A stretch of 64,000 bases of DNA from Planktothrix tepida (GCF_904830955.1 NZ_LR882970.1), one strand, 5' to 3'; positions 29,560-58,171 are shown, counted from the stretch's first letter. Notes: generated by a model from the sequence alone, not told the origin. Numbers and translations are program-made.

Positions 29560-30015
29560 TCGCTTATACCATAAAAGCCTTACAAGGATTAAAAATCAAA
29601 CAACTTGGGCAACAAAAATATATCAACCGCCTTCAAGAATTAGGGCGGAGTGTTCAACGGCACAGCAACTTTTGGTCTTGTCAATATGGGCTTTTATGGA
29701 TAGCTGGAATGGAAATTTGGGCAGACTTGGCTCAACAATTAATGAGAACTAAATGCAATAAGATCCCTTTTTTTCAAAGAGGTCAGAGAGCTATGATGTT
29801 GATTCAGTCTACCTTCTAGCTTCTTTGTCACCCCGTCAGCCGCCCAAACTCTTAAACACCATCTTCCCGATATTTGCCATTATTTTATTAATCGAACAAC
29901 CAGTGGAGTCATGGAGGGATTAAACAACCGGATCAAATTAATTCTTCGTCAAAGCTATGGCTTCAAAAATTTTGAGATGATGCGTGAAAAGCTACTAGCT
30001 TGTCTTTCTTTATAA
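29560..30015 (+). pseudogene. degenerate C-terminal remnant of an ISL3-family transposase
   Basis: The terminal frame encodes ...INRTTSGVMEGLNNRIKLILRQSYGFKNFEMMREKLLACLSL*, which is the ISL3 hallmark (...TNA.TEG.NNKIK..KR.AYGF.NF...). The upstream part is in another frame with stops. No intact ORF. Confidence 0.55.
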
Positions 30016-30054
30016 GATTTACTTATCACCATAGGTACAGGAGAACCTAAATCC

Positions 30055-31422
30055 ATGAACATAACACTCCCAAATAGGTACGACTTCCTTTCTCGCTTCT
30101 TTAGACTAGCTTTCATCAATGTCCTGTCCAATATTATGGAGCCTCTGGCTGGGACAATCAGCTTAGCGTTCCTGGGCCATCTAACCGAAATCCATCACTT
30201 AGCAGGGGTTACTCTCTCTACCACTCTGTTTAACTTCACCTATTTCATTGTGAACTTTTTACGCATGGGAACCACTGGAGTGACAGCGCAAGCGGTGGGA
30301 CGGGATGACACCGAAGATATGCTGCTGGTGGGACTGCGTAATGCTTTAATCGGACTGGGTATAGGCGGACTGCTTCTGTTGTTGCAATATCCTCTGCAAC
30401 AGTTGTGGTTTGGTCTAATGAGCGTGACTCCAGAGGTTAAGGCTTCAGGTATTGACTATTTCAATGCCCGAATTTGGGGAGCGCCTGCGGTTGTCGTCAA
30501 TTTTGTTCTGATTGGGTGGTTTCTCGGACGAGAAATGAGTGGCTTTGTGTTGCTGATGACCCTAGTAGGCAATGCGGCTAATGTTGTGTTCGACTACCTG
30601 TTTATTGTCCGTTGGGACTGGGCAAGCACGGGGGCGGGACTGTCTCAGGCAATTAGCCAGTATCTGGTGTTAGTGGTAGGCATAATTTTGGCGAGTCTCA
30701 ATATCGAGTGGAAGGAAGCTCGAAGTGCAGCCAGAAAGTTTTGGGATGCCAGCGCATTTAAAGCGACTTTTACCCTGAACGGCAACCTCTTTATCAGGTC
30801 TTCGGCTAATATGTTCGTCGCCACCTTTTTCACGGCTCTAAGTTCTGCAATGGGGACAACTATCCTGGCTGAAAATGCCTTACTCTTACAAGTAATAATG
30901 CTTTCCAGTTACTTTTTTGAAGGAATAGGATTTGCTACCGAGACTTTGGGTGGAAATTTTAAAGGCAAACAAACAATAGATCGATTGTTGCCCCTATTGC
31001 AGGTGGCAGTCTCAACCAGCCTACTGGCGGCATTAATTTGTTCTGGAGTGTCTATCCTGTTCCCGAATACAGTCTTTGGGTTATTAACCAATCATAGTGA
31101 AGTGAAGGAACTTGTTAAAATCTATGTTTCTTGGCTACTCTCCAGACTGGGATTTAGTTCAATTGCTATGATACTGGATGGATACTTTGCTGGTTTAGCC
31201 CAAGGGCATTTTATACGTAACGCTACTTTAAGCGGAGCAATGTTTGGATTTGCGCCCTTAGCAGTCATGGCATGGCATTATCAGAGCAATCATCTCTTAT
31301 GGTTGGCTCTATCAATGTTCGCAGCAATAAGAGTGGTAGTGCTTGCGGTGCAGGTGTCCGCAACATTGAAAGATGAACCTCTGGTTGTCGCCGAGCAACT
31401 GCCTGATTCACGCATAGGTTGA
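30055..31422 (+). CDS. MATE-family efflux transporter (DinF-like)
   Basis: 455 aa with 12 predicted TM segments and a MATE N-terminal signature. Confidence 0.85.
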   Translation: MNITLPNRYDFLSRFFRLAFINVLSNIMEPLAGTISLAFLGHLTEIHHLAGVTLSTTLFNFTYFIVNFLRMGTTGVTAQAVGRDDTEDMLLVGLRNALIGLGIGGLLLLLQYPLQQLWFGLMSVTPEVKASGIDYFNARIWGAPAVVVNFVLIGWFLGREMSGFVLLMTLVGNAANVVFDYLFIVRWDWASTGAGLSQAISQYLVLVVGIILASLNIEWKEARSAARKFWDASAFKATFTLNGNLFIRSSANMFVATFFTALSSAMGTTILAENALLLQVIMLSSYFFEGIGFATETLGGNFKGKQTIDRLLPLLQVAVSTSLLAALICSGVSILFPNTVFGLLTNHSEVKELVKIYVSWLLSRLGFSSIAMILDGYFAGLAQGHFIRNATLSGAMFGFAPLAVMAWHYQSNHLLWLALSMFAAIRVVVLAVQVSATLKDEPLVVAEQLPDSRIG

Positions 31423-31536
31423 GCCGTCAACGTTTGCCTGTTTAAAACTTCAGCTAATTTGGTCAAAGTAGATTTTGATGGCGTAGCCTGTAAAAATCTA
31501 ACCTAGCAGGTAGTTAGAAATTGGCAGCAACAACTG

Positions 31537-31809
31537 TTACAGTCTGCTGATAACGAAAGATTTGATAACGTTAACTGTTTCAAAATTCTCCAGTAAGAAT
31601 TCTTCTGGATTTAAGGTAATACCAAACTTTTCTTCCAGAAAGCTAGCCAGTCGAAAAATGCCCAGCGAGTCAACCAGTCCTTCTTCGATTATGGACAAAT
31701 CATTTGATAAAACCATATCGGGTCTATCGTACATGAAATTTTGGATAATATGCTCTTTAATTATCTGTTCTATCTGTGCTTCCGTGTACTTGTTTACGGC
31801 GGTCATTAT
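31537..31809 (-). CDS. stand-alone acyl/peptidyl carrier protein
   Basis: 90 aa from ATG 31809 (AAGGAG RBS 8 nt upstream). The phosphopantetheine attachment motif is LVDSLGIFRL. The ORF track begins at an upstream alternative start. Confidence 0.75.
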   Translation of the reverse strand: MMTAVNKYTEAQIEQIIKEHIIQNFMYDRPDMVLSNDLSIIEEGLVDSLGIFRLASFLEEKFGITLNPEEFLLENFETVNVIKSFVISRL

Positions 31810-31825
31810 CAATCTCCTTATTGAA

Positions 31826-33445
31826 CTATTTTGAATTCTCTTGAAGTTCTTCGGTACGCAGTAAGGTTTTGTCAATCTTGCCTGTAGGGGTTTTAGGTAA
31901 CCCAGAACGAAACTCAATTAGCTCCGGTATCATGTATTTAGGTAGACGCTGTGCACAAAAATATTCTACATCGCTCTTTTTGAGATTATTTCCATCCTGT
32001 GTGGCAATTATAGCCTTGATTTTCTTGCCGATTTCCTCATCGGGAATAGCAATTACGGCTGCTTCAACAATTGCAGGATGAGCGTATAGCGTCGTTTCAA
32101 TTTCATCCAGTTCAATTCGGTATCCTCGGCTCTTAATCTGGTTATCGCGACGACCTAAATAAATATAGTTGCCATCAGAATTGAGTTTCACTAAATCCCC
32201 AGTTCGGTAAACTTTTTCTAACCATCCGCAACCTGGTACGGGGAAAGGTGTGAGAGCCTGTTGGGTTTTGTCATGATTTCCCCAGTATCCTTTCATTAAG
32301 GAGGGGCTACGCACGTAAAGTTCCCCAACTTCTCCTGGTTTGGTAATTTCCTTGTGTTCATTAACGGCAAATACCTCTGTGTTGGCACAAGCTTTGCCAA
32401 TGGGCAGAGTTCTTACCTCTTCAGGAGGAATTTCCTTTACCGGATAGTAAGTACAGACATTTGTTTCTGTGGGTCCGTAGAGATTATAGTAGTTGGCTTG
32501 CGGTAGCAACTCCATAAGTTGACGCAGGTATTTAACTGGGAACACTTCCCCCGCAAACAAAATCGTCCGAATATGGGGAAATTGAGCCTGATGCAGGTTG
32601 CCGTAAACAATTAGCTGTCTCAGCACTGAAGGGACAGAATACCAGATGGTAATTTGTTGTTCTTCAATAAACTGAGCGAGGTTTCTGGGAAACACTGAGA
32701 GTTCCGGTGGTACCAGAATGACAGTCGCACCTGCTTTGATAGTGGTGAAGATATCAAAGATGGAAAGATCGAAATGAAGTGGGGCGTGATTGGAAACGCG
32801 ATCGCTCCTTTGTACCTGAAAGCAATCATAAGCCCAGTTGACAAAGGTTAGAGAAGCTCGATGGCTAATCATCACCCCTTTGGGAGTGCCAGTGGAGCCG
32901 GATGTGTAGAGAATGTAGGCAAGATCGTCTTCAATCAAATTGCTGGGTGGTGATGGGTTTGGCGGTGCTTGCAACACCTCTTGCCAAGACACCATCCTGA
33001 CATTTGACAGATTACCCGTGTCCTGTTGTGCTTCATCGTCAGCGAGTACCAGGCACTGGACACCAGAGGTGTTTGGCAGTTGAAGGCTGGCTATCTTTTT
33101 ATGGGTACTCACCAAAGCCTTCATCTGGCAATTGTCAATGATAAAGCCTATCCGCTTCGCAGGAGCTAAGGGGTCTAGGGGAACGTAGACAGATCCAGCT
33201 TTAAGGATACCGAAAATGGCAATGACTGCTTCAATGGATTTGTTCACGTAAATGCCGACGCGATCGCCTCTTGATATCCCGCAACTTATCAAGAGGTGGG
33301 CTAACTGATTAGAAACTTGGTCTAACTCCCGATACGTGATGCTGCTATTTTTATAGATTACAGCTTCCCGGTCTGGATATTGCTTGGCACTAATTTCTAA
33401 AAGCTGTTGCAGTAGATACGGCATGGGTTTTGGGCTGTCTTCCAT
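31826..33445 (-). CDS. stand-alone adenylation enzyme (amino acid-AMP ligase; AnaC/PltF-like)
   Basis: A-domain cores are present: A3 YTSGSTGTPKGV, A5 YGPTE, A7 YRTGDL, A8 GRRDNQIKSRGYRIELDEIE, A10 PKTPTGKIDK. No C or T domain. Start set at ATG 33445 (MEDSPKPMPYLLQQLLE...). Confidence 0.9.
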   Translation of the reverse strand: MEDSPKPMPYLLQQLLEISAKQYPDREAVIYKNSSITYRELDQVSNQLAHLLISCGISRGDRVGIYVNKSIEAVIAIFGILKAGSVYVPLDPLAPAKRIGFIIDNCQMKALVSTHKKIASLQLPNTSGVQCLVLADDEAQQDTGNLSNVRMVSWQEVLQAPPNPSPPSNLIEDDLAYILYTSGSTGTPKGVMISHRASLTFVNWAYDCFQVQRSDRVSNHAPLHFDLSIFDIFTTIKAGATVILVPPELSVFPRNLAQFIEEQQITIWYSVPSVLRQLIVYGNLHQAQFPHIRTILFAGEVFPVKYLRQLMELLPQANYYNLYGPTETNVCTYYPVKEIPPEEVRTLPIGKACANTEVFAVNEHKEITKPGEVGELYVRSPSLMKGYWGNHDKTQQALTPFPVPGCGWLEKVYRTGDLVKLNSDGNYIYLGRRDNQIKSRGYRIELDEIETTLYAHPAIVEAAVIAIPDEEIGKKIKAIIATQDGNNLKKSDVEYFCAQRLPKYMIPELIEFRSGLPKTPTGKIDKTLLRTEELQENSK

Positions 33446-33557
33446 AGAATGTTCAAACGATAATACAGCGAGATGAATTCGTACCAATTCTTCGTAGCGC
33501 GCCGCAGCGTTGTCTCGTAATCTCGCAAATGCTCTCGCGTAAACAAAAAATCACCCT

Positions 33558-34703
33558 CTATAATCCCATAAATTGGGCAATTATTTGGTACTGAATCTCA
33601 GAGGTTCCTGAATAAAGCTTGCTCCCTAACGCATCCCTTAATTCTCGTTCTAGTTCTAACTCAGTTAGATAGCCATAACCACCATGAATCTGAATTGCAT
33701 CAAGGCAGGACTGCACCCAAGATTCACTAATATAAAGTTTTGCCATTGCCGCTTCCATAATCGCCGTTTTTTTATTATTTTTTAACCATCCTACTTTATA
33801 CAGCAGCGCTCTAGCTGTTTCAAGTCGCATCTTCATGTCAACAATTTTGCTGCTAACTAACTGAAATTTTCCAATCGATTGACCAAATTGCTGGCGCTTC
33901 CTAGCATATTGAATGCAGCTTTCTAACAGACGTTCCATAGTCCCGATCGCACTGGCAAGAATGAATCCTCGCTCCCATTCCATACTGTGATTAAAGATAG
34001 CAAGTCCCGAACCCTCTTGACCAAGACGATTTTCACTCGGCACTTCACAATTTTCTAGGAACAGTTCACCTAACTGAGTCGTTCTTAAACCCATTTTGGA
34101 AATTTTACGATTGATCGCGACTCCGGCAAAATCTTTTTCGACGATAAATCCAGTAATTCCCCGTTTTCCTTTTTCGGGAGCGACATTCGCAAATACAATG
34201 TAAAGGTCAGCAACTGGACCATTTGTGACCCAATTCTTAACACCATTTAAGATGTACTTGTCTCCCTGTATTTTGGCAGTAGTCTTAAGATTGTAAATAT
34301 CCGAACCTGCTTCTGGTTCACTTGCCCCATGAGCGCCAATGAATTCACCGCTACAGAGTTTGGGGAGATACTTTTGTTTTTGAGCTTCGGTGCCAAAGGT
34401 TAAAATCGGTATTTCGCCAGCCCATATATGAGCGTTGATGGCAAAGATTAGACCATTGTCTTTACAACCATAACCTAAAGCTTCCAAGGCACAAATCGTT
34501 GTAAGAATATCTGTCCCAGTTCCCCCATAATGTTCAGGAATTGGCAGACCGATCAGACCAAATTTCCCACATTTTTCCCAACTTTCTCGGTTAAATTCTT
34601 CTCGCCAATCTAGGTCAATTAGATTTGATTGCAACTCTTGTTGGGCGAATTTAACAATCTTCTCTCTAAACTGAATTTGTTCCTCTGTCCATGAAAAGTC
34701 CAT
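33558..34703 (-). CDS. acyl-CoA dehydrogenase-family flavoprotein (candidate aminoacyl-S-carrier protein oxidase, AnaB/PltE-like)
   Basis: 381-aa ACAD fold (MDFSWTEEQ...). The catalytic-base region is YSGTSEIQ. It lies directly upstream of the A enzyme and carrier protein. Confidence 0.8.
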   Translation of the reverse strand: MDFSWTEEQIQFREKIVKFAQQELQSNLIDLDWREEFNRESWEKCGKFGLIGLPIPEHYGGTGTDILTTICALEALGYGCKDNGLIFAINAHIWAGEIPILTFGTEAQKQKYLPKLCSGEFIGAHGASEPEAGSDIYNLKTTAKIQGDKYILNGVKNWVTNGPVADLYIVFANVAPEKGKRGITGFIVEKDFAGVAINRKISKMGLRTTQLGELFLENCEVPSENRLGQEGSGLAIFNHSMEWERGFILASAIGTMERLLESCIQYARKRQQFGQSIGKFQLVSSKIVDMKMRLETARALLYKVGWLKNNKKTAIMEAAMAKLYISESWVQSCLDAIQIHGGYGYLTELELERELRDALGSKLYSGTSEIQYQIIAQFMGL

Positions 34704-34713
34704 TTTTCAAAGC

Positions 34714-36495
34714 TCATTGTGGTGATGAATGTATTCTTATATTGGAATCTGGGTGTCGTTGCTCTATTAACAATTTTCCGATTTCTGAAAGACACTGCTT
34801 GACAAGAGCGATGAAATCTTCCGGCTGTAGATGTTTACTCGTTACAGCAAAGGTAATCTTGTTGCGATCGATGACATAGCCGATTCCATAGTCGCGACAT
34901 GGACTGGGGCAGGCTATCTCTACACCCATTTTATTACTTAGGGCAGAAGCGGAGAAGCTTGGGTCTAAGATAACTTCTTCAAAGGTTTTATCTTGAAAAA
35001 TATCGAGAACACTGCTGCCTTTATAGCGAGCTAAGTTATAAAGCGCATAAAGGTGCATGACCACTCCCTGCCCGTTTTTAGTGTTAAACACTCGCCATAA
35101 ATGAGCGTTAACAGCACGTTTTAGAGTCCGATATCGCACTTCGTCTGAAGCTCCCTCAGTAAAGGCTTGAATGAGTTCTACAGATTCGGGTGTAACTACT
35201 AAGGCGTAGTCGTGCCGCCCGTACCGGAAGGTTCTGTTGTGTACAGCTTGCCAAGCGCTAGTAGTAATCTTACCATGCAGGCGAGTGTAAGCAATCTGTA
35301 GCGACAGGAGAAACACAGCATCAGCAATTAAACCATGTTGCTGGATAAAGTCTGACCCAAATTCGTCGAAAATTATTATCCCCATCTGAATTTGTTCGCT
35401 CAGACGCTCTGCATCTGTTAATGCTTGCGCTACTTCTTCTTTGAGTGTCCGATCTAACTTCCAGCACAGTCGCTGTGGTGGTTCGAGTTCGACTGAACTG
35501 GAGGATGTAAGGGATTCTTCAAGGGGTTCAAGCTCCCGGTTGACCTCGCTTATCAACCGTGCTACCGGATAACCATCGACATTACTGTGTTCAATTGTTA
35601 CAGCGAACTGACCCTCAGAGTTAAAAACGAGCCGAATAGGTTTATCGAACCATCGGTTTCGCGCACCATCTCCAGTAAAGGCAGTTCTTGCTAGCCTTTC
35701 CAAATCGGGAGGCGTTATTTCGTCTAAACAGACAACAAATAAGGCGCTATCCAATAGTTCTAGAGAGCAAGCGTTTTCTGCATCTAGGTTCGTGAGGTAG
35801 GAGCGAACTGTTGCCCACTGTTCTCTGGGGAGAGATGTCAGCACTCCCACAGGAAGTTCCCCTGGATGAGTATTTTCCAGAATCCAATCAATTTGCTGTG
35901 CTACAGCTTCCACCGACGGTAACGTATCCCCTGGGAGCAACTTTAAGACGTAAAACGTATCCCGTCGGATGACCACAATATGCTCAGAATTTTTCGCCCT
36001 TTGAAAGCTGTCACATTTGATTCCAGGAATTCGCGCACTGCCAAACAAATTGTCATACTGAGCCATACAAAGGGGAGGTTTGTTTCGTTGAAATACATCG
36101 CGATCTGGCTCTAGTTCCCGATATTTGATTTTCAGGTGGAATTGGAGGGTATTAAAAATTATGATGGCGACAATGCGGGTAAAGGAATATTTCGAGGTTG
36201 TCAAGACGGGCGAAGCCACCCCTGTGCTTCTCATATTTAGTTGTGAAGACCGCATTTCTAAATAGGTTTCCTCTTTAAATTGTTGTAAATAGTTAGTATT
36301 AGTTGAGCGGTCAATCATCTCCAATTGCTTCTGTAGTTCGACTCCACTCCCTTGTTGAAATTCCCTTACGGCGGTCTTAGTTCGCTCTAATTCTGTGTCA
36401 CTCAACAGCGGTGTTACCATCTCGATATAACGAGCGCAGGTGTCTGAGAGTTTGGGCAAAGGTAGTTTTGGAAGAGACTCTTGGAATTGATACAT
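34714..36495 (-). CDS. choline/carnitine O-acyltransferase-family protein
   Basis: The N-terminal LPKLPLPKLSDTCARYIEMV resembles the family signature LP+LPVP.L..T...Y. The catalytic His block is IEHSNVDGY (family motif EHSxxDG). 593 aa. Confidence 0.7.
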   Translation of the reverse strand: MYQFQESLPKLPLPKLSDTCARYIEMVTPLLSDTELERTKTAVREFQQGSGVELQKQLEMIDRSTNTNYLQQFKEETYLEMRSSQLNMRSTGVASPVLTTSKYSFTRIVAIIIFNTLQFHLKIKYRELEPDRDVFQRNKPPLCMAQYDNLFGSARIPGIKCDSFQRAKNSEHIVVIRRDTFYVLKLLPGDTLPSVEAVAQQIDWILENTHPGELPVGVLTSLPREQWATVRSYLTNLDAENACSLELLDSALFVVCLDEITPPDLERLARTAFTGDGARNRWFDKPIRLVFNSEGQFAVTIEHSNVDGYPVARLISEVNRELEPLEESLTSSSSVELEPPQRLCWKLDRTLKEEVAQALTDAERLSEQIQMGIIIFDEFGSDFIQQHGLIADAVFLLSLQIAYTRLHGKITTSAWQAVHNRTFRYGRHDYALVVTPESVELIQAFTEGASDEVRYRTLKRAVNAHLWRVFNTKNGQGVVMHLYALYNLARYKGSSVLDIFQDKTFEEVILDPSFSASALSNKMGVEIACPSPCRDYGIGYVIDRNKITFAVTSKHLQPEDFIALVKQCLSEIGKLLIEQRHPDSNIRIHSSPQ

Positions 36496-36520
36496 CTACT
36501 TACACTTATAGCTAAGATTA

Positions 36521-37492
36521 TCAGAATTGTGACATAGAAATCAAAATTTTTCTCGAACCAAAAAACGGTCTTCGTCCATGACAAACTAACATATTATCTA
36601 TGACTAGAACATCACCCTCCCGCCAAGGAAAAACAACAGTTTGTTTACCAATAGTTTCTCTAATTTCATCTAGCATTGAAACATCAATTGGAGTATTGTC
36701 GCCAAAGCAAGCATAGTGAGGGAGTTCCTCTTCGTTACCGTCAAAATAAAACATCATAGCTTCGTAGATATTTTTAGGAAGAGTAGATGGATGAAATAGA
36801 TCGGCTTGATTAAACCAAACTTGTTCATCTGTACGAGGATGAGTTGCAATAGCAGGACGAATCTGGCTTAATCGCAATCCTCCATCCTTCTTCCACTCAA
36901 AATCCATACCAGCTTTTCTATTATGCTCTTCTACTAGGGACTTATCTGAAGTTTTAAAAGCATCTTGCCATGAAACTCCCATGCCATTACTACTAGGTAA
37001 ATTGCGGATATACTTCACTTGTTTAAGTGTGAACTTTTCCACAATCTTTGGGTTAAGACTTTTGAGGATTTGGCGACTATCAGCAATTGGTGTTTCTCCG
37101 CCCTCTTTAGGCGCAGTAATACAGCAAAAATAGAGTTGGTCTGGCCATTGGCTAGAGTAGGATAACTCATTATGCAAACTAATGGAGTATTCAGCTGGAT
37201 ATTCAGTTGAAGTATAAATACCACTAGCTAGTTGGGTTCGGGGAGAATTTCCATCAACATAATCTATTAAATTACCTGAAATAGATTTAACGAATTTTTC
37301 AAAAGCTAAGATTGTATTGACATCAAAACCTCGAAAAAGAATCGCTCCGTGTTTCAAAATTTTGTTTGATAAAAGTTCACTATTATCTTTGTACCATGAA
37401 AGGAGATAATCAAAATTAGACGATTCGCGTTTTGTGTCAGGTTCTACTAGCAAGGGTAGATTGTGATTCGAGTCGAAAATTCCTATTTTCAT
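36521..37492 (-). CDS. Fe(II)/2-oxoglutarate-dependent dioxygenase, TauD/TfdA, SyrP or gamma-butyrobetaine-hydroxylase-like
   Basis: HxE facial-triad motif in ISLHNELSY. Distal His and Arg in LVCHGRRPFFG. 323 aa. Confidence 0.75.
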   Translation of the reverse strand: MKIGIFDSNHNLPLLVEPDTKRESSNFDYLLSWYKDNSELLSNKILKHGAILFRGFDVNTILAFEKFVKSISGNLIDYVDGNSPRTQLASGIYTSTEYPAEYSISLHNELSYSSQWPDQLYFCCITAPKEGGETPIADSRQILKSLNPKIVEKFTLKQVKYIRNLPSSNGMGVSWQDAFKTSDKSLVEEHNRKAGMDFEWKKDGGLRLSQIRPAIATHPRTDEQVWFNQADLFHPSTLPKNIYEAMMFYFDGNEEELPHYACFGDNTPIDVSMLDEIRETIGKQTVVFPWREGDVLVIDNMLVCHGRRPFFGSRKILISMSQF

Positions 37493-37566
37493 AATGATTG
37501 AGCTTTTTTAGTCAAATGAAAGAGCTTGTTAATTACCTCAAAAATTTCCACTTAACAGACCAATTA

Positions 37567-40500
37567 CTAAGCCAATGGAGCCTGTGTTTGCTTTAGGCAA
37601 GAGAGAAGTTGTGTGGCTAACACCTGTACGTGCGGCTGTTGCATCATGGTGCTATGGTTCCCTGGAACAACATGAATGTCTATAGTAGAAGAAAACTCGT
37701 TCCAGCCCAAAGCAGGTTCTTTTCGCCTTTGTTTCAACTCTTCTGTATCACCCTCAAATACATCAACCTCACTAGAACGGAAAAGAGTAATGGGAGCTTG
37801 TTGCAGCCCCGAAGGCAAATAAGCACGATGAGCTTTCAGGGACGCAATGTATACTTGCACTAGCCCCCGTACTAACCCTATTCCCGCATCAGGGGGTAGC
37901 AAATTGACCCGTATCAACCGTTCTTTGAGATAGTTCAATTGCTCCTCCTGAGATAGGGAAGCAAGAGTTTCTTTAGATACCTCCAACTTGAGGGAGAACA
38001 TATATTCAATATAGCTGGCAAAATCAAAAAGATATGCCACCTCATCTTCATCAGAATAATTCGGCTTATTAGCAACAATTGGCGCAACAACGTCAATAAT
38101 TGCAAGTAGAGCGACCTCATGCCCCTGTTTGAGCAACTGAGTTGCCATCTCAAAGGCAACTACACCTCCAAACGAATGCCCTCCCAGCAGGTACGGACCA
38201 GAGGGCTGAACTGTCTGTATTGCTTCAATATAGTAGGTGGCTATCTCTTCCAACTGTGTAAAAGGCTCTGATTCGCCATCCAGTCCCCGTGCTTGCAGAC
38301 CGTAGAAGGGTTGCTCAGATCCAAGATGACGCGCTAGCTCATATAAGTAAATCACATTTCCCCCAACTCCAGGCACAAAGAAGAAAGGTCGCTTCTCGGT
38401 GCCAGACTGAATTGCTACCAAAGGAGACCAAGGCAAGGAATGAGTTTCGGATCGAAGACAACTAGCTAGCTGTTCGATAGTTGGGCTAGAGAAAAGCGTT
38501 GCTATGGGCAGATTTTTCCCAAAATGCCGCGAAATTTGAGCCATTAAGAGTACAGCTAAAAGAGAATGACCTCCGAAAGTAAAGAAGTTATCCTTCATTC
38601 CAACAGTCGGAAGCTTCAAAACCTCTGACCAAATTTGCTGTAGTTGCTGTTCAACTGTGTCACGGGGAGGGACAAAGCCCATTGAGTTACTTAATTCCGT
38701 ATCTGGTGTCTCCAAGGCGCGACGGTCTACCTTACCATTGGGGGTGAGAGGTAAAGAAGAAAGCATCACAAAGGCTCCCGGCACCATGTAGTCTGGGAGC
38801 TTTTGTTGGAGGAAGTGCCGCAGTTCAATGGTGGCAGGAGGTTCATGGTTGGGAACAACATAAGCTACCAGTCGTTTGTTATCTGGTTGGTCATCCCTTG
38901 CTAAAACTACTGTCTCCCGTAACTCTGGGTGTTGAGCTAGCGCTGCTTCGATTTCTCCGAGTTCAATACGGAAACCGCGAATCTTCACTTGACGATCCAG
39001 CCGACCAAGGAACTCAATGTTACCGTCTGGAAGGTAGCGGGCATTGTCCCCGGTTTTGTAGAGGCGTGTTCCTTCTTCTTGGCTAAAGGGGTTGGGGATG
39101 AATTTTTCTTTTGTCAATTCTGGGCTGTTGAGGTAGCCTCGCGCCAGTCCAAAACCACCAATATGCACTTCCCCAGGTACACCAACAGGGACTGGTTGCA
39201 GATGGCAGTCGAGCAGATAAATTTGTGTGTTGGTGATCGGGCGACCGATAGGGACAATTTTGATTGGCTCATCCTGTTGTGCCGGAATTGGATAAGTGGC
39301 AACAATTCCACAAGTTTCAGTTTGACCAAACATATTGATTAATCGTGCTTTGTGCTGAAAACCAAACGTCCACTGAGTAGGAAGATCGGACAGCAGCGGT
39401 TCGCTCGCCGACACAATTAAACGCAGTTTGTTATCTAACAGTGCTTGTTTCGTAACAGGTTCTAAGCTAGCAAGTGTATGAATGCAGTTACGCCAATAAG
39501 AGGGGACAATATCAATAACTGTCACACTATGTTGTTTAATTGTCGTAAATAGTGATTGTGGGTCTTTTCTCTGTTCAGAAGTTGCAATTTTGACAGTTGC
39601 CCCACTAGCCAGAGGCACGATCAACTGTCTGACAGAAGATGAGAAAGCAATCGATGCGGTGTGCAAATATACATCTTCTGCTGTGATATTTAGCACTTGA
39701 CTCATTGCTTGGGCATAGTGACACAAATTAGCGTGTGTCACCTGTACTCCCTTTGGCTTTCCCGTTGAGCCAGAGGTATAAATGACATAGGCTAAATTAG
39801 CAACTGTTGCTGTTTGGTTTAAATTTTCTTCTGAGTGTTGAGCAATGAGATGCCTATCTGTATCTAAGCAAACAACTTGTGCCGTATGTTCAGGCAGTTC
39901 TGTTATCAAGCACTCCTGAGTCAACAACACCTTTGGTTGTGAATTTTGCAACATGAACGCTAAGCGCTCTTTGGGATAGGATGGGTCTAAAGGCACATAA
40001 GCCCCTCCAGTTTTGAGGATGCCAAGTAGACTCACTACCATCTCTAAGGAGCGATCAACGTAGATGCCCACCAGCACTTCTGGCTCCACACCTAGAGTTT
40101 TCAAGTGATGTGCTATTCTGTTCGCCCGTTGGTTCAAATCTTGGTAGGTCAGTTGCTCCCCTTCAAAAACCACCGCAATAGCATCAGGCGATCGCTCCAC
40201 CTGTTCCTCAAATAACTGGTGGATACACTTATTGAAGGGATACTCTTTTGTGGCGTTGTTCCACTCTACTAATAGCTGGTGTCGCTCTGGCTCTGTGAGC
40301 AATGGCAATTCTGAAACCTTCTGTTGAGGATTAGCAACAATTCCCTCTAGTAAGGTCTGAAAATGTTGAGCCATGCGATTGATCGTACTGGCATCAAACA
40401 AGTCAGTATTGTATTCCCACGTCCCGATTAGTCCAGAGTCGCTGTTGACGAAAGCTACAAACAAATCCAACTTCGCCGTAGCTGTTTCTACCGCTACTGG

Positions 40501-41820
40501 ACTCACCGTTAAGCCTTCCATGTCTATCTGCATCGCTGGGTAAAGCACAAACCTCACTTGGAAATACGGTGTGTAGCTTAAGTTACGCGCTGGCTGCAAT
40601 TGTTCTAATAACTTTTCAAACGGTAGGTCATGATGAGCGTATGCTCCCAAAGCCACGTCCCGGACTCTTGAGAGTAGCTCCTCAAAACTCGGATTACCTG
40701 ATATATCAGTCCGCAGAACCAACGTATTGAGAAACAATCCAATCAATCCCTGAAGCTCACGGCGCTCCCGGCCTGCGTAAGGCGTGCCTACGCAAATATC
40801 GGTCTGCTCTGTATAACGGTAAAGCAATGTGAAGAGCGCCGCCAACAGCGTCATAAACAGAGTAACTCCTTTGCGTTGACTTAAAATCATCAAAGCCTCT
40901 GTTAGTTCTTTTGAGAGTGCTTGTCGGTGACACGCCCCTCGAAACGTTTGAGTTGCTTTTCGCACTCGGTCAGTTGGCAGTTCCAATATTTCTGGCGCAC
41001 TCCTCAGTTGTTGCTTCCAATAAGCAAGTTGAGACTCTAGTATGTCTTCCTGTAACCACTGCCGCTGCCAAACAGCAAAGTCGGCGTACTGAATCGGTAG
41101 CTCTGGTAGCTCTGGTAGCAAGTCATTGCAGTAGGCTGTGTAGAAAGCTGCTAACTCTTTGACCAATACGCCCTCTGAAGGAGCATCCCAGACAATGTGA
41201 TGTATTGTTAGTAACAAGATATGTTCTGTCGGTGTTAGCTTTAGCACAGAAGCTTGAATCAACCCAGAGCTACTGAGGTCAAAGGGTTGCTGGATTTGTG
41301 CCCTGGCTTTTAGCCCCCAAGCAATTTCTCTTTCACTCTCAGGTAGCTCACTCAAATCTATGACTTGCACACTCAAGGTCAAGCCAAGAGCAATAACCTG
41401 AACGGGTTGCCCCTCAACCGTTGTGAAGTTGGTGCGTAAGACCTCGTGGCGTTGAATTATCTTGTTGAGGCTTTTCTCTAAAGCGACAACGTTGAGAGAA
41501 CCATTAAGTCGCAGAGCTAGTGGTACGTTGTAGAAGGGGTTAGTTGGCTCCAACTGGCTCAAGAACCACAGTCCTTCTTGGGCAAAAGACAGAGGCAAGT
41601 TACCAGTTCGCGAAACTCTTAGAAGGGGTAGGTCAGTATCATTGGCGATCGCATTGCTGTTCTGTAGCAACTTTACAAGTTCTGCCTTATGCAATGCCAG
41701 TAAATTACGTACCTCTGGTGTCAGTACCTTCTTTGGTGCCCGCACGCGCAACTGGTCGTCTTCGACCCACAACTTCACACCAGCTAGGGCGAGTTCAGCT
41801 ACAAATTGCTTAAGGTTCAT
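37567..41820 (-). CDS. single-module non-ribosomal peptide synthetase: N-terminal TubC-type docking domain, C, A, T and TE
   Basis: The N-terminus (MNLKQFVAELALAGVKLWVEDDQLRVRAPKKVLTPEVRNLLALHKAELVKLL) matches the TubC-type docking-domain pattern. The C domain has HHIVWDA. The A domain has LAYVIYTSGSTGKPKGV, NMFGQTE, YKTGD and GRLDRQVKIRGFRIELGEIE. The T domain has FFTFGGHSLLAV. The TE has GHSFGGVVAFEMA (GxSxG). Confidence 0.95.
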   Translation of the reverse strand: MNLKQFVAELALAGVKLWVEDDQLRVRAPKKVLTPEVRNLLALHKAELVKLLQNSNAIANDTDLPLLRVSRTGNLPLSFAQEGLWFLSQLEPTNPFYNVPLALRLNGSLNVVALEKSLNKIIQRHEVLRTNFTTVEGQPVQVIALGLTLSVQVIDLSELPESEREIAWGLKARAQIQQPFDLSSSGLIQASVLKLTPTEHILLLTIHHIVWDAPSEGVLVKELAAFYTAYCNDLLPELPELPIQYADFAVWQRQWLQEDILESQLAYWKQQLRSAPEILELPTDRVRKATQTFRGACHRQALSKELTEALMILSQRKGVTLFMTLLAALFTLLYRYTEQTDICVGTPYAGRERRELQGLIGLFLNTLVLRTDISGNPSFEELLSRVRDVALGAYAHHDLPFEKLLEQLQPARNLSYTPYFQVRFVLYPAMQIDMEGLTVSPVAVETATAKLDLFVAFVNSDSGLIGTWEYNTDLFDASTINRMAQHFQTLLEGIVANPQQKVSELPLLTEPERHQLLVEWNNATKEYPFNKCIHQLFEEQVERSPDAIAVVFEGEQLTYQDLNQRANRIAHHLKTLGVEPEVLVGIYVDRSLEMVVSLLGILKTGGAYVPLDPSYPKERLAFMLQNSQPKVLLTQECLITELPEHTAQVVCLDTDRHLIAQHSEENLNQTATVANLAYVIYTSGSTGKPKGVQVTHANLCHYAQAMSQVLNITAEDVYLHTASIAFSSSVRQLIVPLASGATVKIATSEQRKDPQSLFTTIKQHSVTVIDIVPSYWRNCIHTLASLEPVTKQALLDNKLRLIVSASEPLLSDLPTQWTFGFQHKARLINMFGQTETCGIVATYPIPAQQDEPIKIVPIGRPITNTQIYLLDCHLQPVPVGVPGEVHIGGFGLARGYLNSPELTKEKFIPNPFSQEEGTRLYKTGDNARYLPDGNIEFLGRLDRQVKIRGFRIELGEIEAALAQHPELRETVVLARDDQPDNKRLVAYVVPNHEPPATIELRHFLQQKLPDYMVPGAFVMLSSLPLTPNGKVDRRALETPDTELSNSMGFVPPRDTVEQQLQQIWSEVLKLPTVGMKDNFFTFGGHSLLAVLLMAQISRHFGKNLPIATLFSSPTIEQLASCLRSETHSLPWSPLVAIQSGTEKRPFFFVPGVGGNVIYLYELARHLGSEQPFYGLQARGLDGESEPFTQLEEIATYYIEAIQTVQPSGPYLLGGHSFGGVVAFEMATQLLKQGHEVALLAIIDVVAPIVANKPNYSDEDEVAYLFDFASYIEYMFSLKLEVSKETLASLSQEEQLNYLKERLIRVNLLPPDAGIGLVRGLVQVYIASLKAHRAYLPSGLQQAPITLFRSSEVDVFEGDTEELKQRRKEPALGWNEFSSTIDIHVVPGNHSTMMQQPHVQVLATQLLSCLKQTQAPLA

Positions 41821-42070
41821 AGAGCGATTTCCTTCATACTGTCATCGAGTTCAGTGGATGGGGATGCTGACTGGAGCAGAGCCAATGCCCATTGCTCTAG
41901 CATTAGCTCTGCTAGAGAGGAAATGCTCACACCCTCCATAATTTTCATAACAGGCATCACCCCCGACTTGAACCAGGGCTGTTTCAAAGTCGGGGGGAAA
42001 AGAGTAAAGAAATAGCGATCGCTAGCTGATAAAATCAAAAGCGGTCGCTGATTTTTTTGTAAAAATAAAG

Positions 42071-43270
42071 ATGCTAACAATTCTAATAGAAAAACTGAAA
42101 AAAGTCAAGGATTACCGGAAAGCCCAGGGAACAAGGCATCCAATATGGCTAGTATTATTAATAGTCATTTTGGGGCTAATGTCGAGAAATTTAGGGTACA
42201 GAGAACTCGAAAATTTTGCGAAAATCAATCAATACCAACTGAGTCAAGTTTTAAAAATCAAGCTAGAAAAACTGCCATCATACTCAACAATAAGAAGAGT
42301 AATACAAGGAGTAGATTGGTTAAATTTAATTGAGATATTTAATGAATGGGCTACTTGTAATTATCCGCATCAAGAAGAACTAGATTGGTTAGCAGTAGAT
42401 GGAAAAAGCCTGAGAAGCACTCTCAAAGATTTTGGAGATAAATCCCAAAATTTTGTGATGATTGTTGCACTGTTTAGTCAAAGAACAGGATGCGTATTAA
42501 ACCTGAGAAAGATGGAGAACAAAAAAGAATCAGAAATCAGCCAAGCCCAAAAGATAGTAAGGGATTGCCAGTTAAAAAGAAAAGTAATAACCTTTGATGC
42601 GTTGCACTGTAATCAGAAAACTGCTGCCCTAGTTATTGAGAGCGGGAATGATTATATAATGGCTTTAAAGAAAAATCAAAAAAAGTTATATGAGCAAGTT
42701 GAAGCGGTAATAAAAAGTGAAAATCCTGTGAGTGTAGATGTGACTCATGAACACAGCCATGGCAGAAAAGTGACTCGAAAAGTTTCCATTTATCAAGTCA
42801 ATAACAACTTTCACAAAGGCTGGAAACATCTGAAACTTGTGATTCAGATAGAAAGAAGTGGCAACAGAGGAAAAAAACCCTATCAAGAAAAAGTATATTA
42901 TATCAGTAGTGCCGTTAACGAAGCTCAAACCTTAGCTCAAATCATTAAAGGACATTGGGGGATTGAGAATCAATACCATTGGGTAAAAGATGTAATTTTT
43001 CAAGAAGATAAAAGCCGAATTCGTAACTTTCAAGCAGCTAGCAACTTTTCAACTCTTAAAACTCTGGTAATCAATCTTTTCAGAAGTTGGGGTTTTGTAT
43101 CAATAACAGAAGGACAACTTTTTCGCCTCATTCCTAAAAATTGGGGACTCAATTTGACTCCCCAATTTGGGAAAATGAAACAGCCCTGGGAATTTGAAGG
43201 GGGTTCCTGTCCCGATGCCATTATATCGTTTATCTCGTTCTGCCTTAAAACCGGGTATGAACCGATTTGA
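42071..43270 (+). mobile_element. ISAs1-family (IS4/IS5 superfamily, DDE) transposase gene, apparently intact
   Basis: 399 aa. The N-terminal DYRKAQGTRHPIWLVLLIVILGLMSRNLGYRELENFAK is typical of ISAs1/H-repeat transposases. The C-terminal DDE_Tnp_1 region carries the E in HWGIENQYHWVKDV. Terminal IRs were not identified by eye. Confidence 0.75.
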
Positions 43271-43424
43271 TAATCTGATTGAGAAGTTGGTACGTTATCA
43301 TCCCGAACATTGTATGACATTGAACAACCAGTTTATCATTTTGAATAGATTCCAATTTCCCGCGGCTTAAATAAACATTAAAGAGGATTTGTAAAAATAC
43401 ATCAAAATCAGTTTTTAACTTTTC

Positions 43425-43955
43425 TCAATTGTTTATTCTATCTCTCAATTTAAAGTGAAAACGTCCTGCGTAGAATATCGCACTGATTAACACATTAAGG
43501 GTTAGTTTAAGCCAAGCCCCTACTACGCCGAAAGACATAACGCTTGTTAGTAATAATGAAACAGGTATCATTACAAACCAACCGCCTAATAAACTGATAT
43601 TTCGCACATAGAAAGTATCATTTAATCCCACCAAAGCGGCTCGGTAAATCATAAAAATAGCATCGCCAGCTTGGTAAAAAATATGAATACGCAGAATGGT
43701 AGTAGTGGTTGCTATGACTTCAGTGTCGTTACTGAATATTCCGATGACTAACGGCGAAAAAACTAGGGCGAGAATGCTAACTCCTTCCATCATTATAACT
43801 GCCCAGCAGGCGGCAAGGGATGATTCTTCTTTTGCGCCAACTGCGTCGTTACGCGCTATCGCATGGGCGACTTGAACGGTTGTCATACTGGCAGCACCTG
43901 CGCCAAAGATGTAACCAATATCTTTAATTCTCATCCCGATAGTGTGTGCCGCCAT
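43425..43955 (-). pseudogene. C-terminal half of a second MATE efflux transporter, N-terminal half missing
   Basis: 176 aa corresponding to MATE TM8-12. Upstream coding sequence is replaced by an IS5-type remnant. Confidence 0.7.
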
Positions 43956-44036
43956 TGGTACTACACCAAGATGACTAATTGGGGCTTGCTGAAAAAGTAA
44001 CAGAAAAGGAAACGAATGATGAACTAGCGAATGAAG

Positions 44037-44941
44037 TTAGAAGGGTAAATCAGTTTTTTTTTGAGGAAAGAAGTTAACCGATAAGTTATGATAATCAATG
44101 ACTCGAAAAAAGTAATTGACTAAAAAAATTGACACCAAAATCTGCCTAAGAATGGCAGAGAGATTCATGACTAAAAAAGTAATAGCAATTGCCGTTTCGG
44201 AAGTATGAGCTAGTTTATTCATAATCCGATTCAGGCTAAATCTTCTTTTCCCTTGCCCAAATTTGCCCTCAATTGAATTCCGAATCTTTTCATCGTCTAA
44301 CGCCTGCTTCTTAGTAGCTTCACTCAGATTTACTGGGGGTCTCCCTAACGGAGGGCCACTGATTCTAATTCCTCTTTCTTTACACCAAGCTCGGTTGTCT
44401 CTAGTTCGGTAAATTTTATCTACATGGACTGACTCAGGATAATACCCCGTATATTCTTTAAAAGCCTCTATTTGTGCTTTTAATATATTGCAGTTGTTTT
44501 TTAACTGCCTTTCGTCTTTTTTGTCGGGAAGGTCGGCGTTGTTTGGCTATTTCTAGGTAGTCTTTTCTGGCTTTCTTTCTATAAGTTCTAGGTTTCTTCT
44601 CTGATTTATCCTGACGGCTTTTATACAAACTATCAATGATTTTTTCCGTTTGTTCTCTGGCTTGATTTAAAATTTTTAAGTCCGTCGGATCTGTCACTTA
44701 TCCCTAATTTTTCTTTAATGATTAAGGCTCCCAATGCCATTCTAAATCTTTTGGCTGGTGCTCCCATCACAGATGAGAATAATTCTTCATATTCTGCTTC
44801 AAATTCTTCCCAGGGTATCACTTTTGCCATGATGACCCAGCGATTCTCTTCCGACAGCTTTCCCTCAAACGGCAGTTTGAAATCTTCTGCTGGTGTCCTT
44901 GGTTGTTCGTCTTTACGGTACATTTTCCCCGACTCCTGCAA
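44037..44941 (-). mobile_element. IS5-family transposase, fragmented by frameshifts and internally deleted (non-functional)
   Basis: Three consecutive ORF fragments. The InsH-N-like head is MYRKDEQPRTPAEDFKLPFEGKL...IMAKVIPWEEFE...MGAPAKRFRMALGALIIKEKLGISDR. The tail is ...RISGPPLGRP... and (V)EGKFGQGKRRFSLNRIMNKLAHTSETAIAITFLVMNL. Confidence 0.7.
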
Positions 44942-44951
44942 GGTTTTTGGG

Positions 44952-47488: not shown

Positions 47489-48304
47489 TTAAGAACTTAT
47501 TCGTTTAAGTATTCCTGATTTAGCAAAATAAGGTTGATTTTCTGATGGGGAAATACGACCCAGACCCGGAATTTTTGATTCATCAGGAGGAGGAAGGGGT
47601 GCTGTTAAAGGTTGGGTAATATCACGCCCAACTAATCGTTTAGATAAACGAGAAATCCGAGGATTTTGTCGCATCTGAGTTTCATTCATAGCATAAATGT
47701 GCAGATCAATATATTGTTGAGCGATCGGATCATATAAATGTTCTTTCATGATTCCTTCTAATTGAAATCCTGCGGTAATTAAAGCTGCATGGACAGGATG
47801 GTTATAACCATAACAATAGGCATAATAGCGATGTAAATGATAGGCATTAAAAATTAAATCTGTCATTAATAAACCCGCTTCAATCCCATAGGAAATAGAA
47901 CGATATTTTTCTTCAAAAATTCCAATTAACAGTTCAGCCCTTTTATGGAGAGCACTATAGTCGGCGGCGGCAATAATTCCAATGATGCCATGATGTTTAT
48001 GAATCATTAAACATTCTAAATAACCACTTTCAGCAGGTGTTAAACGGGATCTTCTGATTAATTTTTCTCTAACTTCTTCTACGGTTTCTGCTGTATCATT
48101 CAAACGAAATAAACGCATAAATTCATAACAAGAATACATTTTTTCAAATAGAAAAATAGCATCATCGGGAGTTGTGCGTTTGAGGGTTAGAGAACATCCT
48201 TGATGCAGAATGAGAGGATTTAAAGTCATAGGGTTATAGCAGGGAATAGTTAACAAAACATAGAGAATTACAATAAACCGGGGTAAAACGTTTGATAAAA
48301 CCAA
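47489..48304 (-). CDS. hypothetical protein, possibly GNAT-fold acyltransferase
   Basis: About 245 aa from the probable start MTLNPLILHQ (about 48229). The GIIGIIAAADYSALHKRAELLIGIFEEKY block is reminiscent of GNAT motif A. Weak assignment. Confidence 0.35.
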   Translation of the reverse strand: MVLSNVLPRFIVILYVLLTIPCYNPMTLNPLILHQGCSLTLKRTTPDDAIFLFEKMYSCYEFMRLFRLNDTAETVEEVREKLIRRSRLTPAESGYLECLMIHKHHGIIGIIAAADYSALHKRAELLIGIFEEKYRSISYGIEAGLLMTDLIFNAYHLHRYYAYCYGYNHPVHAALITAGFQLEGIMKEHLYDPIAQQYIDLHIYAMNETQMRQNPRISRLSKRLVGRDITQPLTAPLPPPDESKIPGLGRISPSENQPYFAKSGILKRISS

Positions 48305-57907: not shown

Positions 57908-58128
57908 TTCAGTTGATTAATTAATGGCCAAAGGATTCTAATCAGTAGTTGCCGGGAGATCGCACCCATTTGAAGGGATGAACAGGAAGGACGATCTCTA
58001 TTGACCCGATGTACAATTTTTCCTCGGTTTAAACAGTACAATCGGGGAAATTGCCGTTGGGTATATCTGGAGAACGTCTTAATTTAACGTTAATAACTCT
58101 AGTATACTCGATTTTAGGAATCTTTAAA

Positions 58129-58159
58129 GAAACCCGATTTCTTGAAGAAACCGGGTTTC
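58129..58159 (-). terminator. terminator hairpin downstream of giant gene 2
   Basis: Same gaaacccg...cgggtttc hairpin as at 49123-49153. Confidence 0.6.
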
Positions 58160-58171
58160 GGGATTTCTTCG

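Follow-up and report, generated by a model that had tools for sequence, protein, structure and literature searches.

The locus described here raises the question whether a compact biosynthetic operon is a small pathway in its own right or what is left of a larger one. It lies in a stretch of 64,000 nucleotides (nt) from Planktothrix tepida PCC 9214, referred to as the window, within which all coordinates are counted. Six co-directional genes on the minus strand encode a nonribosomal peptide synthetase (NRPS) module, a dioxygenase, a protein with the carnitine/choline acyltransferase (CAT) fold, a flavoenzyme with the acyl-CoA dehydrogenase (ACAD) fold, a stand-alone adenylation (A) enzyme and a stand-alone acyl carrier protein (ACP). 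An earlier note on this DNA had described them as one operon lacking a polyketide synthase (PKS), in which the last three proteins feed a single NRPS module. Our analysis suggests another answer. Taken as a whole, the locus is likely a mobile, recombinant remnant of a cyanobacterial NRPS-PKS-NRPS cluster family that was truncated at an insertion sequence (IS), and for its surviving parts a mechanism can be proposed. For the truncated mosaic origin itself, the sequence comparisons leave little doubt.

Pfam searches confirmed the six genes, their common orientation and the domains ascribed to them. In the direction of transcription, the operon consists of a terminal NRPS module of 1417 amino acids (aa) with a TubC_N docking domain followed by condensation (C), A, thiolation (T) and thioesterase (TE) domains (37567-41820), a TauD-family Fe(II)/2-oxoglutarate dioxygenase (36521-37492; Pfam TauD PF02668, 138.5 bits), the CAT-fold protein (34714-36495; Pfam PF00755 over residues 11-565, 450.8 bits), an AnaB-clade ACAD-fold enzyme predicted from its match to AnaB (4IRN) to be a prolyl-S-carrier-protein dehydrogenase (33558-34703), an A enzyme of 539 aa assigned to the PltF/AnaC type by Pfam and its specificity code (31826-33445), and an ACP of 89 aa (31537-31806). 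The intergenic gaps, counted from the ACP to the NRPS gene, are 19, 112, 10, 25, and 74 nt, in agreement with the earlier note. What that note had overlooked are two gene scars, one of a PKS gene within an 87-codon open reading frame (ORF; 41817-42080) and one of a halogenase gene within the 112-nt spacer between the ACAD and A genes.

The PKS scar (41817-41964, minus strand) overlaps the start of the NRPS gene and contains the last 46 codons of a PKS gene, encoding the end of an ACP domain and a docking tail. It was recognized by comparison with Microcoleus. The nearest homologues of the CAT outside Planktothrix are found in Microcoleus sp. D2_18a_B4 and B9-D4 (87-88% identity), where a 2203-aa PKS with the domains KS-AT-DH-cMT-KR-ACP directly precedes the NRPS-TauD-CAT block. 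The scrap in the window shares 85% aa identity with the C-terminal 46 residues of this PKS (E = 1e-23). At the DNA level, positions 34788-41964 are 92.9% identical over 7182 bp to the locus of strain B9-D4 (L092), whose cluster extends over about 5.9-32.5 kb of JAUBTS010000003.1. This homology breaks off within the PKS tail at 41964, the point at which the IS starts. Upstream of the PKS, the Microcoleus cluster contains a loading C*-A-T module and genes for an aminotransferase, a small methyltransferase and a protein of the dihydrodipicolinate synthase (DHDPS) family. A variant cluster (L098), whose PKS is 80% identical, retains the aminotransferase gene, a DHDPS-like gene, a small ORF, the loading NRPS, the PKS, the NRPS and TauD. 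Neither the loading module nor the PKS nor the precursor genes (aminotransferase, DHDPS-like) of these two clusters were found in the window, which contains no PKS gene anywhere in its 64 kb. In a database that includes P. tepida proteins, the 120 best matches to the Microcoleus PKS, which extend to 45% identity, also included none from Planktothrix.

The view that the module is fed by the carrier protein instead of by PKSs thus has to be revised, since 138 nt of a PKS 3' end survive and both a PKS and a loading module are present in the orthologous cluster of Microcoleus, whose DNA is 93% identical. The PKS scar, the end of the L092 homology at the IS and the absence of Planktothrix among the best 120 PKS homologues together argue that the missing PKS is the outcome of a deletion beside the ISAs1 element and not a matter of design. 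Judged by these alignments, the NRPS of the window represents the final module in an NRPS-PKS-NRPS line whose PKS was deleted at the IS. In the variant cluster L098 (15388-23001), the terminal NRPS (2052 aa) ends with an extra C domain in place of the TE, and TauD is followed by a DDE_5 transposase gene and a carbamoyltransferase gene; this layout is a further sign of IS-associated reshuffling in the cluster family.

The IS itself (41965-43300, plus strand, right-hand boundary approximate) belongs to the ISAs1 family. Its transposase gene was called at 42179-43270 (363 aa; alternative start 42071), and the protein scored 259.7 bits with the NCBIfam model transpos_ISAs1 (NF033564; cut-off 70 bits) and also matched Pfam DDE_Tnp_1. 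The gene has the same length as the 1092-nt transposase gene of ISPlr1, an ISAs1 element listed for Planktothrix (PMC9366434). The junction between the PKS scrap and the IS is marked by a near-perfect hairpin at 41963-42000 (CCCCCGACTT-GAACCAGGGCTGTTTCA-AAGTCGGGGG). Its 14-nt loop (41973-41986) recurs perfectly inverted at 43176-43189, within the called transposase ORF, and the two sites are candidate IS termini at most. The same truncated layout is present in P. pseudagardhii No713. As the two genomes share 99.8% identity across 19 kb, housekeeping flanks included, this copy represents the same event and not independent conservation. Two segments of the window, 43815-45098 and 45423-46982, have no counterpart at the matching place in No713 and take in most of a 719-aa nSTAND3-like NTPase ORF (44952-47111).

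The other half of the locus has its relatives elsewhere. The closest relative of the ACAD with a useful gene context (94% identity) is located on a 20-kb metagenomic contig (L088/L089), in which a C-A-T-KS-AT-DH-KR-ACP-TE megasynthase gene is followed by genes for a CAT, the ACAD, a methyltransferase, an FADH2-dependent halogenase, an A enzyme, an 89-aa ACP and, in convergent orientation, a MATE exporter. Positions 30050-36506 of the window, which cover the MATE, ACP, A, ACAD and CAT genes, show 84-92% DNA identity to this contig, the ACP and the A enzyme being 94 and 91% identical to their counterparts. The complete MATE gene of the window (30055-31422, plus strand, Pfam MatE), which is convergent with the operon, occupies the same relative position as the L088 MATE gene and is 84% identical to it in nucleotide sequence. 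Of the 112 nt in the spacer between the ACAD and A genes, 100 match the 3' part of the halogenase gene of L088 with 97% identity. The translated remnant (33442-33546, minus strand, 35 codons) shares 91% identity with residues 354-388 of the 456-aa halogenase. The methyltransferase gene and most of the halogenase gene were therefore deleted in P. tepida.

The two halves meet within the CAT gene. In a sliding comparison, its first ~1640 nt were ~92% identical to Microcoleus and 74-94% to L088, whereas for the last ~140 nt and beyond the identity to Microcoleus dropped to 34-40% and that to L088 was 79-91%. These profiles place a recombination joint about 100-140 nt before the CAT stop codon, near 34790-34860. 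What had been taken for a single operon combines two cluster types that became joined by recombination within the 3' end of CAT, and it has lost the methyltransferase and halogenase genes as well. Both cluster types belong to one family, as the L088 megasynthase shares 75% identity with the Microcoleus PKS (1242 aa) and 56% with the Microcoleus loading module. That the Microcoleus cluster might be a deletion derivative that kept only the methyltransferase of the pyrrole cassette was considered and rejected, its methyltransferase being unrelated to that of L088 (22% identity, E = 0.003). A complete version uniting PKS, NRPS, TauD, CAT and the pyrrole cassette was found neither in genome contigs nor around the 80%-identical PKS (P0243), and metagenome contigs yielded only relatives at ≤56% identity. 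The synonymous divergence from Microcoleus is low (dS 0.10-0.22) and the G+C content of the locus (0.43-0.48) exceeds that of its flanks (0.36-0.40), which fits horizontal transfer.

From these comparisons the following history can be proposed. The ancestral cluster would have had the order still seen in Microcoleus sp. B9-D4 and D2_18a_B4, with genes for aminotransferase and DHDPS-like enzymes, a loading C*-A-T module, the PKS, the docking-C-A-T-TE module, TauD and CAT. In one event, an ISAs1 element would have replaced everything upstream of the last 46 PKS codons. In a second, the 3' end of CAT would have recombined with a sister cluster carrying CAT, ACAD, methyltransferase, halogenase, A, ACP and MATE genes, and in a third the methyltransferase and halogenase genes would then have been deleted, leaving the 35-codon scar. 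As to the surviving enzymes, the A enzyme is proposed to load L-proline onto the 89-aa ACP, and the AnaB-clade flavoenzyme to oxidize prolyl-S-ACP, most likely to pyrrole-2-carboxyl-S-ACP. The CAT would then pick up the acyl group that the ACP carries on its phosphopantetheine arm and attach it as an ester to a hydroxyl group of an assembly-line product, possibly one installed by TauD.

The first two of these steps correspond to the prolyl-carrier-protein oxidation cassette that had already been suggested for the ACAD, A and carrier-protein trio, and this suggestion was supported by the A code, the AnaB match and the PigA and RedW models. The A-domain codes were read by alignment to a GrsA-PheA fragment, whose own read-out, the textbook code DAWTIAAICK, checks the register. 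The stand-alone A enzyme has the code DLFYLALVCK, identical in nine of ten positions to the code DLLYLALVCK obtained from an HMMER alignment for PltF (6O6E), and PltF is also by far the best match of its pocket fragment in the PDB (E = 5.7e-45). It is thus predicted to be an L-proline--carrier protein ligase. The best solved relative of the ACAD is AnaB (4IRN; 66% identity, E = 1e-176, 590 bits), all other PDB chains reaching at most 342 bits and ordinary ACADs at most 300 bits. Its identity to PigA is 41%, and its top two NCBIfam models, PigA (447 bits) and RedW (400 bits), remained under their equivalog cut-offs of 500 and 650 bits. The ACP scored 23.1 bits with Pfam PP-binding (cut-off 20.8) and has Ser47, in a DSLG motif, as the phosphopantetheinylation serine. 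A check for a fatty-acyl-type ACAD or a non-proline A code, either of which would speak against the assignment, found neither.

On these grounds, it is very likely that the cassette makes a proline-derived (dehydro)prolyl- or pyrrolyl-S-ACP. We favor pyrrole-2-carboxyl-S-ACP over a pyrroline as the product of the ACAD, because ACADs 84-94% identical to it adjoin pyrrole-type FADH2 halogenases in three other contexts and because the window carries a halogenase scar. A point against this preference is that AnaB, the closest characterized ACAD, carries out a two-electron oxidation only and reportedly stops at pyrroline-5-carboxyl-ACP (work of Mejean, Mann and colleagues). Compact clusters of the halopyrrole type occur on four metagenomic contigs (L005, L006, L007, and L008), where an ACAD 84-87% identical to that of the window is encoded together with a halogenase, an A enzyme, a small ACP, a second halogenase, a DUF3179 protein and a free-standing condensation domain. 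In these clusters the C domain, and not a CAT, would transfer the pyrrolyl group.

The dioxygenase and the NRPS module belong to the Microcoleus-like half. The dioxygenase is 91% identical to its Microcoleus orthologue, and its triad H107-x-E109...H305 aligns with that of At3g21360, an uncharacterized protein which, together with an unnamed TauD/TfdA protein (9YUT), represents the nearest solved structure (At3g21360: E = 3e-42). It had been described as related to γ-butyrobetaine dioxygenase (BBOX). This identity was rejected: the trimethyllysine dioxygenase model TIGR02410 gave 37.7 bits against a cut-off of 268.3, no chain among the structures of BBOX and trimethyllysine hydroxylase passed E = 1e-3 with the dioxygenase as query, and membership in the same Pfam family is the only common ground. 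The NRPS gene is 93% identical in nucleotide sequence to the Microcoleus orthologue located directly behind the PKS. All its motifs are intact, including HHxxxD (H207-H208..D212), SGSTGKPKG at position 683, the T-domain serine S1086 and the TE motif GxSxG with S1216. Its A domain (residues ~537-1030) has the code SSRDVAMGIK, in which Ser replaces Asp235 and which further has Arg239 and Asp278, and the motif YGPTE is changed to FGQTET. The Microcoleus orthologue has the same pocket, which suggests a substrate without a normal α-amino group. To our knowledge, this code matches none described so far.

Of the surviving enzymes, the CAT is the most unusual. The PCC 9214 sequence LN889812.1 (GCA_900009145.1) encodes it residue for residue. 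It is ~30% identical to carnitine acetyltransferase (CrAT) and CPT2. Its catalytic residues E302-H303...D307-G308 are invariant in 26 homologues, and the S-x-S motif is also kept. The CrAT residues Tyr452, Ser454, Thr465, and Arg518, reported to form the carnitine site in the structure work by Jogl and Tong (2003), are replaced by W415, A417, H428, and M480. With the CrAT numbering registered by Glu453 and Asp430 (PMC11852590), Lys419 and Lys423, which bind the 3'-phosphate of coenzyme A (CoA) (PMC11852590), correspond to S381 and Q385. Since both the carnitine site and the CoA-phosphate site are lost, the protein should not be named a carnitine acyltransferase.

The 26 aligned bacterial homologues form two groups. 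Fourteen sequences from Rivularia, Calothrix, and Mastigocoleus keep the motifs Y-E-S...G-R-T-E and D-R-H-L of the carnitine signature; all 14 have Lys at the position of Lys423, and at that of Lys419 Arg is present in 11 and Gly in three. In the 12 aligned members of the cluster-associated subclade, to which the window CAT belongs, both CoA-phosphate lysines are lost without exception. CATs with the full signature are encoded in heterocystous genomes of Rivularia, Calothrix, Mastigocoleus, and Richelia (L013-L035, L044; proteins P0021-P0047, P0053, and P0055). They look like bona fide bacterial carnitine-type acyltransferases, and none of the other cluster genes of the window was found within 10 kb of them.

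All contexts examined for the cluster-associated subclade involve carrier-protein enzymology. Besides the NRPS-PKS-NRPS cluster of Microcoleus, they include a PKS gene on the opposite strand in Microcoleus N9_A2. In Microcoleus sp. BROC3 (L010, 22-11737), a TE-less NRPS ending in T-C-C is directly followed by a CAT 85% identical to that of the window, which might act there as a release enzyme. The BROC3 NRPS has A domains of the Asn and Gln type, which do not help to assign SSRDVAMGIK, and a JmjC/cupin hydroxylase gene is located on the other strand. In L090 (9998-19832), the gene for a CAT with 78% identity to that of the window directly precedes the gene for a PKS whose loading region is of the AprA type (tert-butyl starter). 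The neighborhood, which also has a MATE gene and genes for WelO5-like halogenases and a radical SAM enzyme, represents another uncharacterized cluster type with a CAT of this clade. In four contexts (the window, L088, Nostoc CHAB 5844, and Aerosakkonema BLCC-F183) the CAT gene directly adjoins a stand-alone A and ACP pair. The Nostoc ACP is 64% identical to that of the window, and the Nostoc A enzyme is unrelated (24% identity, without Asp235).

The loss of the CoA-nucleotide contacts and the recurrent A and ACP neighborhood argue for a switch of the acyl donor from acyl-CoA to an acyl-S-phosphopantetheinyl carrier protein, and the loss of the carnitine site argues for a new acceptor. We therefore propose tentatively, at somewhat less than even confidence, that the window CAT is a carrier-protein-dependent O-acyltransferase for the proline-derived group. 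Some observations weigh against this assignment. Closely related CATs (85-87% identity) occur in the Microcoleus and BROC3 clusters, which have no pyrrole cassette. Its donor is therefore not always pyrrolyl-ACP and its role could be generic, and where a stand-alone ACP is absent, a carrier domain of the megasynthase or something else must be the donor. In addition, pyrrolyl-S-ACP could in principle be accepted by the C domain at the start of the L088 megasynthase, in which case the CAT would have a different task. These features, together with the BROC3 CAT behind C domains and the L090 CAT in front of an AprA-type loading module, are what would be expected if the CAT had nothing to do with the pyrrole cassette and were a generic acyl-CoA O-acyl(acetyl)transferase or a release or transfer enzyme like the fungal cAT domain, the C domain using pyrrolyl-S-ACP as starter as proposed for L088. 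We consider this rather unlikely, as both CoA 3'-phosphate lysines are missing throughout the cluster-associated subclade but the carnitine-signature clade keeps Lys at the position of Lys423; moreover, the CAT stands beside an A and ACP pair in four contexts and the ACP type is kept between the window and Nostoc despite unrelated A enzymes.

A functional precedent for CAT-fold enzymes acting on carrier-bound substrates is given by a fungal PKS, whose cAT domain esterifies carrier-bound polyketides (Hang et al., 2017, as related in PMC8582187). With more reserve than for the window CAT alone, we suggest that the cluster-associated cyanobacterial CATs (window, Microcoleus, Nostoc CHAB 5844, Aerosakkonema, metagenomic contigs) form a new class of O-acyltransferases that depend on carrier proteins. 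Their origin would lie in a carnitine-type enzyme that Rivularia and Calothrix still possess, CoA having been exchanged for phosphopantetheinyl-ACP as donor and carnitine for natural-product hydroxyls as acceptor, and they would modify the products of PKS/NRPS lines with (halo)pyrrolyl and other acyl groups. If this is true, they represent in bacteria, as separate proteins, what the cAT domain is in fungi. Less firmly still, the P. tepida mosaic might even now be expressed and yield a novel small pyrrole ester or amide.

What the truncated locus does today is a separate question. Since the PKS is missing together with the loading module and the precursor genes, and the docking domain of the NRPS is orphaned, we regard it as more likely than not that the P. 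tepida locus no longer makes the ancestral product. It may have a residual or new function, such as pyrrolyl transfer to another acceptor. The view of the locus as a remnant has to be set against the finding that none of the six ORFs is interrupted and no catalytic motif is incomplete, and against the pairwise dN/dS ratios of 0.24-0.35 for NRPS, TauD and CAT versus Microcoleus and of 0.08-0.19 for ACAD, A and ACP versus L088; these ratios average over the whole divergence, neither date the truncation nor show selection after it, and were not used as evidence of function. The truncation may also be recent, and the search for a partner PKS covered the window and the best 120 PKS homologues.

Intact ORFs and dN/dS values below 1 would equally be expected of a self-sufficient six-gene operon, in which pyrrolyl- or dehydroprolyl-S-ACP donates to the C domain of the single module, TauD hydroxylates and the CAT acylates, giving a small N-pyrrolyl product. 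A promoter-like hexamer pair inside the IS end (42108-42080), facing the NRPS gene, and the identical layout in P. pseudagardhii also speak for such an operon. Yet promoter-like sites are no commoner in the window than in shuffled sequence, neither the promoter nor the terminator scan of the window rising above the shuffled expectation, and the P. pseudagardhii copy, being the same event, provides no independent evidence of selection. The docking partner of the TubC_N domain is the PKS tail, and of a cognate upstream module only the last 46 PKS codons remain before the IS begins. The stand-alone ACP has no comparable tail, its C-terminus (..NVIKSFVISRL) being unlike that of the PKS. The terminal module is PKS-fed in every intact relative, and it was recombination with a different type of cluster that brought in the pyrrole cassette. 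Functional self-sufficiency thus appears improbable. Even less probable is a pathway split in trans, in which another P. tepida megasynthase, e.g., from the PHL1, PPL2, or PPL3 cluster, feeds the orphan C-A-T-TE module: another NRPS/PKS hybrid and two small PKS clusters are listed for PCC 9214 (Table 3 of PMC5259702) and the docking domain and NRPS motifs are preserved, but no orthologous donor was seen, Planktothrix being absent among the best 120 Microcoleus PKS homologues (at least 45% identity), and the window lacks the aminotransferase and DHDPS-like precursor genes that two intact variants share.

Among known systems, the remnant shares its pyrrole cassette with pyoluteorin biosynthesis (PltF/PltE/PltL) and with RedM/W/O and PigI/A/G, in which a stand-alone A enzyme with a near-identical code, an ACAD and a small carrier protein likewise occur. 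The plt cluster carries FADH2-dependent halogenases, as do the sister cassettes of the window. Differences from these systems are that the window ACAD remains at 41% identity to PigA and below the NCBIfam PigA and RedW cut-offs, and that, unlike in plt, the cassette is linked to a CAT-fold enzyme and not to a type I PKS loading step. With the anatoxin-a system AnaB/AnaC/AnaD of Oscillatoria PCC 6506 the locus has in common the gene trio, the cyanobacterial host, a nearby MATE gene and an ACAD with 66% identity to AnaB. In contrast to the ana cluster, the type I PKSs AnaE, AnaF and AnaG have no equivalent in the 64-kb window, and the PKS scrap comes from a different NRPS-PKS-NRPS family. The halogenase scar, moreover, points to a pyrrole, whereas the product of AnaB is said to be a pyrroline. 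By three of the comparisons given above (A code, grouping of the ACAD with AnaB, small carrier protein with its phosphopantetheinylation serine) the cassette is of the PltF/E/L-AnaC/B/D kind, and the locus is not an ana cluster.

For the CAT, the eukaryotic enzymes CrAT, CPT2, and choline acetyltransferase (ChAT) have the same full-length PF00755 fold with the EHSxxDG histidine and the S-x-S oxyanion motif; the window protein differs from them as a stand-alone bacterial enzyme in a biosynthetic cluster, with the carnitine-site residues and the equivalents of Lys419 and Lys423 replaced. The proposed chemistry has a parallel in clorobiocin and coumermycin biosynthesis, where carrier-bound pyrrole-2-carboxyl is moved onto a sugar hydroxyl by CloN1-N7. 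There, too, a proline-derived pyrrolyl-S-carrier is the O-acyl donor in a tailoring step, but the transfer enzymes do not have the CAT fold. A literature search for a bacterial or cyanobacterial CAT-fold enzyme in a biosynthetic cluster and for the code DLFYLALVCK found nothing, which is weak evidence, as subscription papers were mostly outside its scope. The NRPS/PKS module of antiSMASH does not model the CAT fold (PMC8582187).

Damage to and rearrangement of peptide clusters by IS elements are documented in Planktothrix for mcy and others, including cases of the ISAs1 element ISPlr1 (PMC9366434). The window resembles these cases in that a megasynthase gene is broken off at an ISAs1 element, here one that encodes a 363-aa transposase. 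It differs in that its cluster is not among the seven pathways analyzed there and in that its event is a multi-gene deletion and not a simple insertion. The earlier note knew of no characterized cluster of this composition, and we found none in the literature searched either; the locus itself, however, has apparently been catalogued before. An orphan cluster of the NRPS class, PNL3, of 11.3 kb and present only in PCC 9214, was listed with "no significant similarity in databases" (Pancrace et al., 2017; PMC5259702), and the window locus is probably this PNL3, catalogued but not analyzed.

For genome mining, the locus is a warning that a tidy "orphan NRPS operon" can be all that remains of a larger assembly line, the evidence for this being gene scars of 138 and 105 nt that gene callers ignore. 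It also adds a concrete case of IS-mediated deletion and inter-cluster recombination to the turnover of Planktothrix clusters. The useful lead is the CAT subclade that lacks the carnitine and CoA 3'-phosphate sites and travels with A and ACP pairs and megasynthases, a candidate for new tailoring or transfer chemistry. In the search for products, the intact cluster of Microcoleus B9-D4 and the metagenomic cluster with the halogenase gene are better entry points than the P. tepida remnant.

The flanks of the operon agreed with the earlier note in containing the complete MATE gene, an ISL3 scrap, the ISAs1 transposase gene and a MATE fragment, as seen with Pfam, NCBIfam, and tblastn. The degenerate ISL3 transposase remnant (29836-29997, plus strand), located between dus and the MATE gene, was detected with the ISL3 transposase of L092 as tblastn query, of which residues 355-408 matched (54 aa, 50% identity, E = 1e-12). 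The complete MATE protein passed the cut-off of the NCBIfam equivalog "guanitoxin biosynthesis MATE GntT" (654 versus 525 bits). Besides it, no other gnt gene is present at the locus, and automatic annotation would probably mislabel it as GntT. On the far side of the IS, a MATE gene fragment (43425-43955, minus strand; 176-aa ORF) contains one MatE domain (E = 3.8e-14) and showed no detectable similarity to the first MATE gene in tblastn.

The giant ORFs at 49-64 kb were considered as the missing PKS or NRPS genes and rejected, as they encode DUF4347/FG-GAP/RTX surface proteins. Two secreted-type proteins are encoded at 49166-63721, one of 2913 aa with DUF4347 and RTX repeats and one of 1849 aa with FG-GAP, cadherin-like and RTX repeats. 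Upstream of them, a GNAT acetyltransferase gene and a sulfotransferase gene are arranged head-to-tail at 47489-49089. In this part of the window, giant ORFs included, the local G+C content reaches 0.52. The remainder of the window is housekeeping in character and includes psbA-like, ftsY, lpxB, and dus genes as well as a complete type I restriction-modification system (HsdM, HsdS, HsdR) at 1285-8236.

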